A stretch of DNA of 64,000 nt, taken from positions 21,889 through 85,888 of the forward strand of contig JADYYY010000008.1 of assembly GCA_020853395.1 (NCBI GenBank), in the 5' to 3' direction. Every line of letters begins with the position of its first letter. Positions within the stretch are counted from its first letter, which is position 1. The notes under the pieces were generated by a model. The model searched no databases. It was not told where the DNA came from and was given only the letters and a program-made list of their open reading frames with translations. Source of the stretch: Acidobacteriota bacterium. GTDB taxonomy: Bacteria; Acidobacteriota; Vicinamibacteria; Vicinamibacterales; SCN-69-37. Below, one piece after another: positions 1,593 through 48,298 of this stretch. The position numbers were made by a program, and so were the translations under genes.

Positions 1593-1668
1593 TGGTGGAC
1601 CAGACCGGGATCGAACCGGTGACCTCATGAATGCCATTCATGCGCGCTCCCAGCTGCGCCACTGGCCC
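1593..1668 (-). tRNA. tRNA-Ala (anticodon GGC), CCA encoded
   Basis: The reverse complement folds as a cloverleaf: acceptor GGGCCAG/CTGGTCC with the G3:U70 alanine identity pair, D stem GCGC/GCGC, anticodon stem CATGA/TCATG with loop AT-GGC-AT, T arm ACCGG-TTCGATC-CCGGT, and a 3' ACCA end. Confidence 0.9.
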
Positions 1669-43231: not shown

Positions 43232-45611
<2,380 letters not shown>

Positions 45612-45663
45612 CGTCGCACGACGTCGCCGACCACAACTTTTGACAACGCACGTGAATTTGTGC

Positions 45664-45693
45664 TTGACAGGACGGAAGTCTCGTCCGTAATCT
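45664..45693 (+). promoter_or_regulatory. Near-consensus sigma70 promoter in the ddl-downstream intergenic region
   Basis: TTGACA (45664-45669), 18 nt spacer, TAATCT (45688-45693). Confidence 0.6.
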
Positions 45694-45699
45694 ACATCT

Positions 45700-45890
45700 T
45701 GCGTGAGAGCCATTCGCTCAGCCCAGTTATTGGGTACTGCGGAGACGAGCCAAGCGAGGCCTCTCCCGCGTGCGTTCTCGACGGAAGCCGGCGCTCGCCG
45801 GCGGCTGCGAACGCCGCGGCACGCCAGACGCGAGAAGGGTTCGGGCTCGCGAGCTATCGAGGTGCGGCATGGGTGCCGCGCTTTTTTTTT
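45700..45890 (+). ncRNA. Candidate structured small RNA or cis-leader of unrecognised family
   Basis: Bounded by the promoter above and an intrinsic terminator. GC-rich nested helices throughout. No SD-preceded ORF. Confidence 0.45.
45862..45890 (+). terminator. Rho-independent terminator
   Basis: GTGCGGCA-TGGG-TGCCGCGC followed by a run of 9 T. Confidence 0.8.
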
Positions 45891-46048
45891 GAGTTCTGAA
45901 TCGTCGGAGCGTCGCGCGTCCAACGCGCGCGCGTCCGCAACGATGCCAGGGAACTTCGTTTCAGGGTCGGGCAGACCGAGCGGTCGCGACGCCAGGACGA
46001 AGGTGAACGCCTGAGCAGTAGACCAAGCCGAAAGGGGGGACTGAGAGC

Positions 46049-46102
46049 ATGGCGAAGAAAGCAGCCAAGGGCGGAAAGAAGAAGGGCGGCAAGAAGCGGT
46101 AA
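46049..46102 (+). CDS. 17-aa highly basic micro-protein (MAKKAAKGGKKKGGKKR)
   Basis: GGGGGGA SD 8 nt upstream of the ATG. An in-frame TAG at 46019 prevents any longer form. A strong terminator follows 22 nt after the TAA. Below the ORF-track length cutoff. Confidence 0.45.
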   Translation: MAKKAAKGGKKKGGKKR

Positions 46103-46124
46103 GCACGCCCTCCCGCTAAGAAAA

Positions 46125-46150
46125 GGGGGCGAACGTCGCCCCCTTTTTTT
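46125..46150. terminator. Strong intrinsic terminator, potentially bidirectional
   Basis: GGGGGCGA-ACG-TCGCCCCC followed by T7 on the plus strand. The minus strand reads the same stem followed by TTTTCTT, 25 nt after the convergent gene's stop. Confidence 0.85.
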
Positions 46151-46174
46151 ATTCCCTCGGTCGTCCCGTCCTGC

Positions 46175-48298
46175 CTACCTGAACTCCACCCCGTCCCACA
46201 CGCGCACCCGCTGCACCACGTCCCACGGCGCGAGCTCGTCGAGCACCGGCCAGCCGTCGACGACGCGGCCGAACGCCGTGTACTTGCCGTCGAGGTGCGG
46301 CTGCGGCGAGAGCGTGACGAAGAACTGGCTGCCGCCGGTGTCGCGCCAGTCGAGCGCCATGCCGAGCGTGCCGCGCACATAGCGGGTCGCATTCAGCTCA
46401 TCGGGAATCGTGTAGCCTGGCCCGCCCTCGCCGTCACCGCGCGGGTCGCCGCCCTGCACGACGAACGCCGGCACCACGCGATGCAGCTTCATGCCGTCGA
46501 AGAACCCCGCCCGGGCCAGCTCGATGAAGTTCAGCGACGTCGCGGCCGCGTCCGTCATGTCGAGCTCGGCTTCGATCGTCCCGGCGCGCGTTTCGATGAA
46601 CACGTGCGGCGAGAACGCCGGGTGCAGCAGCGCATCCGACCCAAACCACTCGGCGGGCTGCCGCAGGCGAGCGGGGCGTTCGGGCGCCGCCGTCGCGTCG
46701 CCGAGGCCGCGGAGCAGCTCCGCCGTGCGCCATCGCACGGGCCACTCGCGATCTCCGAGACCGCGGCGGAGAATGGTCCGCGCTTCGTCGCTACCGTACG
46801 CGGCGAGCGCACCGAGCGCCGCCGCTCGGGCTGAGTAGGCGGCATCGCTCTGACCGCGGTCGTACGCGGTGACGAGGTGAGGCACGGCGCCCTCGAGCTC
46901 GATCTCGCCGATGAGCCGCGCGGCGGTCGCCCGCTCCACGAAGTCGGCCGCCTGAAGCGCGGTGAGCAAACGCGCGCCCAGATCCGGCGGCTTCACGACG
47001 GCCAACGTCTCGAGCGCGGCCGCGCGCACGCGCGCGTCGGCATCCTTCGCGAAGTCGTCCACCGCCGTGCGCACGAGGTCGGGCGAGAGCGTCCCGAGCA
47101 CGCGCGCGAGCGCCGCACGCACCGACCAATCCTTGTCGGGTTCCAGGCTGGCCAACACCACCAGGAAGGCGTCGGGCGCGACATGGGCGGCGGCGGTGAG
47201 CGCCGCCGCCCGCACGGCCGGCGCGGCATCGCTCACATAGTCGAGCAGCGCATCGAACGCGGGCGCGTACTGGGTCGCGCCGAGCGCCGTGATCGTCTCG
47301 AGGATCAGAACCGGAGGCGCCCCCGGCGCGTCGAGCAGCTCGATCAAAGGAACGGCGGCCTCACGCCCTCCCACCTGGCCGAGGGCTCGCACGGCGGCCA
47401 CACGGACTTTGACGTCAGCATCGCGCCGGGCGGCCAGCCCCTTGGCCACCGCAACGAGGCTCGGCTCCTTGAACGCGGCGAGGCCACGCAACGCGAACCC
47501 CGCGGTGTAGATGCCGGGTGTGCCCGCCAATGCGGACAGGGCCGGCACGGCCCGGCGGTCGGCGATCCGCTGCAGCGCGTACGCCACGGGCCACCAGCGC
47601 GAGACCGGCTGTCCGCGACCGTCGAGCGCGACGCCGGCAATCGCGTCGTAGCTCTGCAGCCGCACGAACGCGAACAGCGCGGCGCGACACACTTCGATCT
47701 CCGGCGCCTTCGGCGCCTCGTCATCGGGCTCGAGCGTCGCGATCCGCGCACTGCAGCCCGCCGCGGCCTGATAGATGGCGGGCACGGCCGACGCGGACCC
47801 GATCAGGCCGAGCGCGTCGATGGCTCGCGCGCGAACGACGAGCGATGGATCCGCCAGCGCGGTTTGCAGCGCGACCACGGCGTCGCGGGCGTCGGGTCCA
47901 ATCAGCCCCAGCGCGAAGGCGGCGGTCGCACGCACCGCCTCCTCGGGATCCTGCAGCGACGCGATCAACGCGGGCACCACGTTCGGCAGCGCGATGCGGC
48001 CGAGCGCGAGCACGGCACGGCGCCGCACGACGGGATCCGGATCGACGGCGAGCGCATCGAGCGCGGGCTCGCTCGCGGATCGAAATCGTGCCGGCCCCGG
48101 AACATCGGCGGCCGCGCTCCCCGGATCGCGAAGCTGCCTCTGCTGCTCGAGCCTGACGATCCAGCCGAGCTTCGTGTCGCGCGACACCGTGTGCTCGGGA
48201 ACGACGACGACCTCCGGCGCCGGCACGGACTTGCACGAAGCGGCGATGAGACACGCGAACGCGATGAGCGCGCGGCTCACGGCCGCAGGTCGCGCCAT
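46175..48298 (-). CDS. HEAT-repeat lipoprotein fused to a cyclophilin-type peptidyl-prolyl isomerase
   Basis: Lipobox LIAASC. About 500 aa of D..VR..A..ALG HEAT-like repeats. The C-terminal cyclophilin has FHRVVPAFVVQGGDP-like (HRVVPAFVVQGGDP) and GSQFFVT motifs. Confidence 0.85.
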   Translation of the reverse strand: MARPAAVSRALIAFACLIAASCKSVPAPEVVVVPEHTVSRDTKLGWIVRLEQQRQLRDPGSAAADVPGPARFRSASEPALDALAVDPDPVVRRRAVLALGRIALPNVVPALIASLQDPEEAVRATAAFALGLIGPDARDAVVALQTALADPSLVVRARAIDALGLIGSASAVPAIYQAAAGCSARIATLEPDDEAPKAPEIEVCRAALFAFVRLQSYDAIAGVALDGRGQPVSRWWPVAYALQRIADRRAVPALSALAGTPGIYTAGFALRGLAAFKEPSLVAVAKGLAARRDADVKVRVAAVRALGQVGGREAAVPLIELLDAPGAPPVLILETITALGATQYAPAFDALLDYVSDAAPAVRAAALTAAAHVAPDAFLVVLASLEPDKDWSVRAALARVLGTLSPDLVRTAVDDFAKDADARVRAAALETLAVVKPPDLGARLLTALQAADFVERATAARLIGEIELEGAVPHLVTAYDRGQSDAAYSARAAALGALAAYGSDEARTILRRGLGDREWPVRWRTAELLRGLGDATAAPERPARLRQPAEWFGSDALLHPAFSPHVFIETRAGTIEAELDMTDAAATSLNFIELARAGFFDGMKLHRVVPAFVVQGGDPRGDGEGGPGYTIPDELNATRYVRGTLGMALDWRDTGGSQFFVTLSPQPHLDGKYTAFGRVVDGWPVLDELAPWDVVQRVRVWDGVEFR

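Follow-up and report, generated by a model that had tools for sequence, protein, structure and literature searches.

The ddl locus and the unit downstream of it

The DNA examined here is a stretch of 64,000 nucleotides (the window) from contig JADYYY010000008.1 of an Acidobacteriota bacterium in the Vicinamibacterales, and the element in question is a short unit at positions 45664-45890 on the plus strand, located between ddl and a gene for a micro-protein. An earlier inspection of the letters alone (the sequence-only reading) had described it as an orphan promoter-to-terminator unit that produces a GC-rich structured RNA of about 190 nt. The ddl gene occupies positions 44451-45611 on the plus strand (stop codon 45609-45611) and is followed, after 52 nt, by the -35 hexamer TTGACA (45664-45669), which is directly preceded by TTTGTGC (together 45657-45669). 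The -10 hexamer TAATCT (45688-45693) lies beyond a spacer of 18 nt, the 3' half of which reads TCTCGTCC (45679-45693 including the hexamer). The near-consensus promoter that had been placed after the ddl stop was recovered at 45664-45693, and it is conserved in 73 unique related loci, in which TAATCT, TTGACA and their surroundings are near-invariant. The combination of TTTGTGC and TTGACA has a single match in the window.

The two bases before TAATCT differ between loci (CA, CG, CC) while the hexamer itself is invariant, which favors TAATCT with an 18-nt spacer as the -10 hexamer; in L031, a relative with two micro-ORFs, the promoter scan also scored a reading as CATAAT with a 16-nt spacer, at 11 of 12. 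Judging from the position of the -10 hexamer, transcription would start near 45700. Also conserved are a TTTTGAC box that precedes the -35 hexamer by about 25 nt, TTTGTG abutting this hexamer and the spacer half TTTCTCAYCC. In the window, a distal box upstream of the promoter reads TTTTGACAA (45638-45646, plus strand); it is conserved in the 73-locus profile as well as in the raw alignment, and is a candidate for an UP-like element or a factor site. The extra conservation across 45638-45693 suggests that the promoter is bound by a factor or belongs to a special class.

The unit ends with an intrinsic terminator, T1, identified by a terminator scan at 45859-45890 on the plus strand (GAGGUGCGGCA-UGGG-UGCCGCGCUUU..., followed by U9). 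It corresponds to the clean terminator previously recognized at 45890, with the hairpin at 45859-45881 and T9 at 45882-45890; it folds at -16.6 kcal/mol (z -4.03) and recurs in relatives. With both signals conserved across related loci, the promoter-to-terminator unit is genuine. A list of open reading frames (ORFs) with a check for Shine-Dalgarno (SD) sequences agrees with the earlier statement that no SD-bearing ORF lies between the promoter and the terminator. Three plus-strand ORFs (45660, 45703 and 45770) all lack a convincing SD and run through the terminator; the nearest to a candidate is the GTG at 45770, with GAGG 10 nt upstream, which is not conserved.

The sequence-only reading had found no resemblance to 6S, SRP, tmRNA, RNase P or any riboswitch, and this held when the Rfam 15 covariance models, Acido-1 among them, were run, with no match in the unit at the gathering score. 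At E-values of up to 10 there was nothing at 45697-45850 and only terminator-type noise nearby, and the sole gathering-level match in the 64-kb window was a tRNA gene (1596-1668, minus strand). Rfam searches of 11 related loci gave 0 matches, the two-ORF locus L031 gave noise only, and ARAGORN found no tRNA or tmRNA.

Downstream of T1 follow a leader (leader B, 45891-46048), a micro-ORF of 17 codons (ORF2, 46049-46102) and a second terminator, T2 (46125-46150; GGGGGCGA-ACG-UCGCCCCC plus U7), all on the plus strand. ORF2 encodes MAKKAAKGGKKKGGKKR, is separated from T1 by a 160-nt spacer and has a very strong SD, GGGGGG. T2 marks the end of the locus and is identical in L136, the closest non-identical relative, and conserved across loci; a homologous site was found by scan in L031, and terminator-like Rfam noise falls on T2. 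Beyond T2, as read from the sequence, lies a convergent gene for a HEAT-repeat/cyclophilin protein of 744 aa.

Related loci and their architecture

A Ddl-based scan of 185,579 species genomes yielded 80 loci, the best of which belong to the Vicinamibacterales or to uncultured Acidobacteriota, with Ddl identities of 55-67%. An nhmmer search with the intergenic region matched most of the 80 loci, and the matches were confined to two parts, namely the promoter together with the ~45 nt that are transcribed first, and the region of the micro-ORF. Thirty-one of these loci have the motif CTTGACA-N-TAATCT, and in every one it follows ddl; the loci from Terriglobia and other phyla had neither the motif nor the micro-ORF. 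A metagenome scan with TAATCTACATCTTGYGTG-N11-CTCAGCCCA added 53 further loci. The promoter and T1 recur in about 80 Vicinamibacteria-type loci, and the module lies between ddl and the HEAT/cyclophilin gene wherever the contig is long enough, even though the Ddl proteins are only 59-71% identical.

Closer relatives were sought by Ddl among 5.8 billion proteins. The search returned one identical contig (L134), and the next best Ddl identity was at most 76% (L136). The identical contig, a Logan contig from SRR11294032, is 2096 nt long and matches window positions 44280-46375 without differences, which indicates that this sample contains the same strain.

When the 73 unique loci are anchored on TAATCT, conservation runs from about -50 to +47 and stops there. 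The profile consists of TTTTGAC, TTTGTGCTTGACA, TTTCTCAYCC, TAATCT, ACATCT,.G..UGAG, GCUCAG.CCA and UUG.G. The transcribed part of it corresponds in the window to the 5' block at 45694-45737 (plus strand), which contains the discriminator ACATCT and then UGCGUGAGAGCC-AUUC-GCUCAG-CCCA-GUUAU-UGGG-UAC, and which is conserved at near 100% in loci where Ddl is 59-76% identical.

The usual order in relatives is a promoter and 5' block, a conserved 5' untranslated region (UTR), an SD (AGGAGG) with a first micro-ORF (ORF1), T1, leader B, ORF2 and T2. ORF1 is a Lys-rich micro-ORF of 14-26 aa that is located at about +96 from TAATCT in most relatives. The U-run of T1 is found about 190-200 nt from TAATCT in the ORF1-bearing loci and at +195 in the window. 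Leader B is about 150 nt long in relatives and is followed by an SD (GGGGGGG) and ORF2, and the ORF1 and ORF2 peptides are usually identical within one genome.

The architectures were counted as unique loci and grouped by 5' class. All 15 loci of the GUGUG class have both ORFs, and the GUAUG class includes 21 loci with ORF1 and 8 without it. None of the 31 unique loci in the GCGUG class, to which the window belongs (5' end UUGCGUG), has an ORF1. Within this clade a terminator precedes the single ORF in 20 loci and is missing from 11; every member retains the promoter and the first 45 transcribed nt as well as leader B, ORF2 and T2. In the loci that lack T1 (L013, L015, L021, L032, L036, L083-85 and others), the 5' block joins leader B and ORF2 directly.

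The unit in the window shares with the ORF1 mRNA its promoter, its 5' start, its terminator distance and the U-run/GAGUU junction with leader B, a junction at T1 that is common to ORF1-bearing loci such as L031. Thus, the unit occupies the place of the ORF1 mRNA, and the description of it as an orphan has to be abandoned in favor of a positional homolog of the first of two tandem micro-ORF genes in relatives.

Two further observations concern the place of ORF1. About +80 to +110 from TAATCT, L007 and L018 carry what looks like a decayed ORF1 start (GGGAGGACAAACGGCGAAGA), with the SD kept and ATG changed to ACG (weak match, E 0.2). This would be an apparent independent loss of ORF1 in another clade, on a match that is statistically weak. 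Furthermore, a 21-nt motif, (U)GAUGGAYNACGACGRCAGUCG, occurs in the long-bodied loci L089, L093, L095, L103, L116, L118, L129 and L131 at about +85 to +110 from TAATCT, roughly where other loci have the ORF1 AUG. The window matches it partly (UUCUCGACGGAAGCC, 45775-45789) and L136 is without it. The small ORF behind the group-A motif ATGGAYNACGACGRCAGTCG (MD[HYN]D[GD]SR) was considered and rejected, having no usable SD, a frame not shared with the window and an unconserved peptide.

Conserved and variable parts of the RNA

The helices that had been drawn by eye in the sequence-only reading are all present where they had been placed, but they differ in support: the first set, in the 5' domain, gained modest support, and the central ones are at chance level. 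In the first set, GAGAGCC (45705-45711) and TCGCT (45714-45718) pair with AGCGA (45753-45757) and GGCCTCTC (45758-45765), enclosing CCCA-GTTAT-TGGG (45722-45734). According to RNAduplex, the strand AAGCGAGGCCUCUCCCGCGU (45752-45771, plus strand) pairs with 45700-45719 and would form the 3' side of a long irregular stem closing the 5' domain (45701-45771). This 73-nt domain has a folding z of -1.5. The 5' strand in the GCGUG clade, UGCGUGAGAGCnnnnnGCUCAG, has its complement in the segment right after the CCCA-N5-UGGG hairpin, and this pairing beats dinucleotide shuffles (mean z -1.17, Fisher p ~1e-5, a value that is optimistic as the sequences are related). Cognate strands also pair better than non-cognate ones, with permutation p-values of 0.024 for 20 sequences and 0.006 for 28 sequences after double-centring.

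The ORF1-bearing relatives have a different hairpin, P1 (GGGUGG/CCACCC), with GCUCAGC in its loop, and this loop can pair with GCUGAGC beside the SD. Exchanges between G-U and G-C in P1 point to constraint at the RNA level, although most of the conservation is plain sequence conservation. We also considered two other explanations for the conserved 5' end. One was mimicry of ribosomal RNA (rRNA), given that GGCUCAG and GGCGUGCC resemble the 5' end of 16S rRNA; alignments to E. coli 16S and 23S rRNA were no better than those of shuffles. The other was pairing, in trans or in cis, between the 5' end and a segment just upstream of the ORF2 SD (B3), which is good in L016, L092 and L084 and is not kept in the window or in L089. 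The apparent match to B3 is explained by B1:B3 pairing inside leader B.

The GC-rich body of the RNA (45738-45858, plus strand) is hypervariable, with the identical contig as its sole homolog. It contains the two central hairpins, GCCGGC-GCTC-GCCGGC (45788-45803) and GCGGC-TGCGAAC-GCCGC (45801-45817), which overlap by 3 nt, as well as two crossing pairings, GCGTGC (45768-73) with GCACGC (45819-24) and TTCTCG (45775-80) with CGAGAA (45831-36). The segment 45773-45858 has a folding z of -0.39, and 69 of 200 shuffles fold equally well; for the whole RNA, z is -1.64 against dinucleotide shuffles. When L136 is compared with the window, the promoter, 5' block, T1, leader B, ORF2, 3' UTR and T2 are near-identical, whereas the segment from GGGUAC to T1 is unalignable and measures about 57 nt instead of about 118 nt; L135 behaves likewise. 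Seen over window positions 45612-46174 and L136 positions 1502-2010, the non-coding parts are about 90-100% identical, Ddl is 76% identical, and 45738-45858 forms an unalignable island. Among relatives in general, no alignment is possible for the stretch that separates T1 from the 5' block, and its length ranges from about 20 to 150 nt.

Since the body has been swapped for unrelated sequence in L136 and folds at the level of shuffles, we judge the GC-rich middle to be unconstrained filler in a GC-rich genome. An origin from a repeated or mobile element (REP- or MITE-like) was rejected, since apart from L134 neither the fetched loci nor the rest of the 64-kb window contains another copy, and so was a hidden relic of ORF1, for which nhmmer searches with profiles of both micro-ORF units returned nothing. 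The comparison of ddl-downstream regions, which had been proposed as a check on the RNA, thus bore out the promoter, the 5' block and T1 and left the body without a homolog other than L134. The notion of a GC-rich structured RNA family is contradicted by these data, as conservation is limited to the first ~45 nt and the terminator, and the middle is replaced in the closest relative and folds like shuffles. The switch-like alternative folding has no comparative support, both competing pairings being located inside the unconserved middle.

Leader B (45891-46048) consists of a variable hairpin (45903-45938), a conserved core (45940-46030) and a G-rich SD (46034-46039), and is conserved in all loci. 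The conserved sequence begins right after the U-run of T1, and the hairpin is the only variable stretch. This GC-only hairpin, GUCGGAGCGUCGCGCG-UCCAA-CGCGCGCGCGUCCGC, opens the leader and gave only CRISPR-DR29 noise in Rfam (E 7); its sequence differs in every relative and its presence is always kept. The core includes a hairpin, GACC-GAGC-GGUC (45974-45985, plus strand), which is GUGCC-GNRA-GGCA in most relatives. The window keeps the leader B helices with compensatory differences. For 22 diverse sequences and 12 predicted pairs, 92% of the cells are paired and 10 of the 12 pairs have changed on both sides. The covariation score is 0.424 versus 0.216 for shuffles (0 of 500 reach it), and slid partners score at most 0.107. 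Leader B has no Rfam match, and we consider it a better candidate for a new cis-regulatory RNA motif than the flagged region 45664-45890.

Homologous micro-ORFs number 112, are 14-41 aa long and without exception have a strong SD. Those of the 17-aa class comprise 43 unique nucleotide sequences that encode only 14 peptides, and their variation by codon position is 60/92/173. The small number of peptides from many sequences, together with the excess of variation at third positions, indicates that the ORFs are genuine genes. The micro-protein family is rich in Lys, Ala and Gly (MAKK...KKR; L002-L046, L081-L133) and is usually present in two tandem copies, the peptides of which are identical within a genome and different between genomes, a pattern that suggests concerted evolution of the copies. 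No significant relative of the micro-protein was found in Pfam, NCBIfam or PDB, and literature searches found nothing relevant to it.

Transcription of ORF2 and known regulatory systems

In the window, in L136 and in L031, the interval from T1 to ORF2 contains no sigma-70-like site according to a promoter scan, in line with the earlier remark that no convincing second promoter is visible at 45891-46048. In the loci without T1, where the 5' block is fused to leader B, the upstream promoter must drive ORF2. The layout in the window is that of an attenuator, with T1 between the promoter and the same-strand ORF2 at 46049 and no sigma-70-like site in between. The earlier suggestion that the micro-ORF is expressed by read-through, with the RNA as its leader, is therefore the best-supported reading, given the T1-less fusions and the lack of an intervening promoter.

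We lean toward the hypothesis that 45664-45890 is the ORF-less first unit of a two-unit micro-protein locus, and that it provides the promoter and 5' leader of ORF2, with T1 as an internal attenuator. RNA polymerase would start near 45700 at the only promoter of the locus, and the 5' block would then fold, probably into the long irregular stem at 45701-45771 with the CCCA/UGGG hairpin and the invariant GCUCAG on top. Most polymerases would stop at T1 and release an RNA of about 190 nt, and a read-through fraction would carry leader B and ORF2 (46049-46102). T1 would in this way set the dose of the micro-protein, and the short RNA would be mainly a by-product.

Several observations weigh against this hypothesis. 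T1 is strong in the window (8-11 bp, U9), and read-through might be very low. The sequence of its stem (GGUGCGGCA) and its position are conserved in the clade, the former without obvious need, which could point to an independent function of the short RNA. A search by eye for an antiterminator in the interval from the 5' block to T1 gave only unconserved matches of 4-5 nt. No conserved pairing of the mutually exclusive antiterminator/terminator type was found; the competing pairings drawn previously sit in the hypervariable interval. The structural support for the 5' domain is modest, and P1, when tried as a family-wide structure, had 75% of cells paired and a score of 0.186 versus 0.146 for shuffles, and is lost in the window. 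Furthermore, an alternative-sigma promoter at 45891-46048 may exist beyond the reach of the sigma-70 scan. That ORF1 was lost rather than gained in the window's clade is inferred from positional homology, and at window positions 45700-45900 neither micro-ORF profile had an nhmmer match.

One alternative is that the short RNA is an independent trans-acting small RNA (sRNA), kept after the loss of ORF1, that base-pairs with targets or titrates a protein. The invariant 5' end (UGCGUGAGAG...GCUCAGCCCA) would then be the seed or binding site, the terminator with its U-tail a chaperone-binding or stability module, and the middle a linker. The strong promoter and the strong T1 fit this picture, as does the combination of a conserved 5' end, a variable middle and a sequence-conserved terminator, which is typical of enterobacterial seed-type sRNAs; homologous units moreover encode a peptide in relatives, as dual-function sRNAs do. 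We nevertheless regard it as unlikely. A promoter, a terminator and a conserved 5' end are present, but predictions place this 5' end in a helix, and mRNA leaders have it too: it serves as an ordinary 5' UTR before ORF1 in the other classes. The 11 of 31 clade members without T1 make no separate short RNA; the 5' block is nevertheless present in them, joined to leader B. The analysis found no complementary target that is conserved, and the match to B3 in leader B is not kept in the window. An even more far-reaching proposal, speculative and improbable as a whole, is that the 5' block (45694-45737) and leader B (45891-46048) are two new classes of cis-regulatory RNA and T1 a regulated switch, operated for instance by peptide feedback or processive antitermination, on a hitherto undescribed and very highly conserved Lys-rich micro-protein of 14-41 aa in the Vicinamibacteria that is possibly associated with the ribosome or the nucleoid, with the ~190-nt RNA acting as a decoy or sRNA.

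Regulation could also be limited to the 5' block, which would sense or recruit something and decide whether transcription stops at T1 or ORF1 and ORF2 are translated; it might be a protein operator (possibly for the micro-protein), a ligand aptamer or an antitermination RNA of the put or EAR type. Its conservation from +1 to +47 exceeds that of the neighboring essential gene, and it is upstream of a micro-ORF in every architecture. The G-U/G-C exchanges in P1, the potential of the GCUCAGC loop to pair with GCUGAGC by the SD in ORF1-bearing relatives and the modest covariation in the 5' stem are likewise what such a leader would predict. We hold a regulated leader of this kind to be quite unlikely, considering that no terminator/antiterminator alternative is conserved, that the interval from the 5' block to T1 is hypervariable in both length and content, that the covariation of P1 is weak family-wide, and that neither a known riboswitch or leader family nor an rRNA similarity pointing to mimicry was found. 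Least probable is a pure relic, in which a decaying ORF1 pseudogene is transcribed without a role and ORF2 has its own non-sigma-70 promoter within 45891-46048. The hypervariable and unstructured body and the visible decay of ORF1 in L007 and L018 agree with a relic, but near-identical promoters, 5' blocks and T1 sequences at Ddl identities of 59-76% are incompatible with neutral decay, the T1-less fusions put ORF2 directly under this promoter, and no conserved promoter-like motif is present between T1 and ORF2.

The unit is thus most likely an unannotated promoter-proximal leader or attenuator derived from a small-protein gene, rather than a new structured RNA family. A genome of 66-70% GC yields attractive hairpins and "switches" by chance, and the comparative data place the functional signal elsewhere, in the first 45 nt, in the terminator and in the leader further downstream. 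Of more interest than the flagged unit are its neighbors, namely the 5' block with its invariant sequence, leader B with its covariation, and the micro-protein. Few soil bacteria are as abundant as the Vicinamibacteria, whose RNA regulation and small proteins are, to our knowledge, almost uncharted. Here, a gene for a tiny polycationic protein, usually duplicated in tandem, has non-coding elements on both sides, and their conservation surpasses that of the essential neighboring gene ddl. Rfam, Pfam and NCBIfam have no entry for the locus, which gene callers would overlook. If the attenuator/leader hypothesis is true, the locus would offer a tractable case of a duplicated small-protein gene decaying into a purely regulatory RNA unit.

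Several known systems resemble the locus in part. The size range and the promoter-to-terminator organization recall 6S, SRP, tmRNA, RNase P and other Rfam 15 families, to which the unit has no relevant match even at E-values of up to 10. Autoregulatory leaders of ribosomal and small basic proteins provide a likeness in that elaborate conserved leaders (A and B) precede a very basic and evidently highly expressed small protein; the difference is that this micro-protein has no relative in the protein databases searched and the leaders contain no rRNA-like sequence. Dual-function sRNAs that are also mRNAs for small proteins, such as SgrS/SgrT, RNAIII/hld and SR1/SR1P, lose the ORF in some lineages. 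The unit in the window is similar in that its homologs in relatives encode a tiny peptide and it does not, with the 5' end and the terminator kept, and it differs in that there is no evidence of base-pairing targets, that the lost ORF has an intact paralog directly downstream and that the conserved 5' part is also an ordinary 5' UTR elsewhere. Compared with prematurely terminated, riboswitch-derived leaders of the SreA/SreB type, the locus has no recognizable aptamer, no conserved antiterminator and no Rfam 15 match, its sensor-to-terminator segment is hypervariable, and its terminator is dispensable in a third of the clade. With such attenuator leaders it nevertheless shares a strong promoter, a conserved proximal RNA and a same-strand terminator before an ORF, as well as the combination of a short terminated RNA and a read-through mRNA that we propose here from the sequence.

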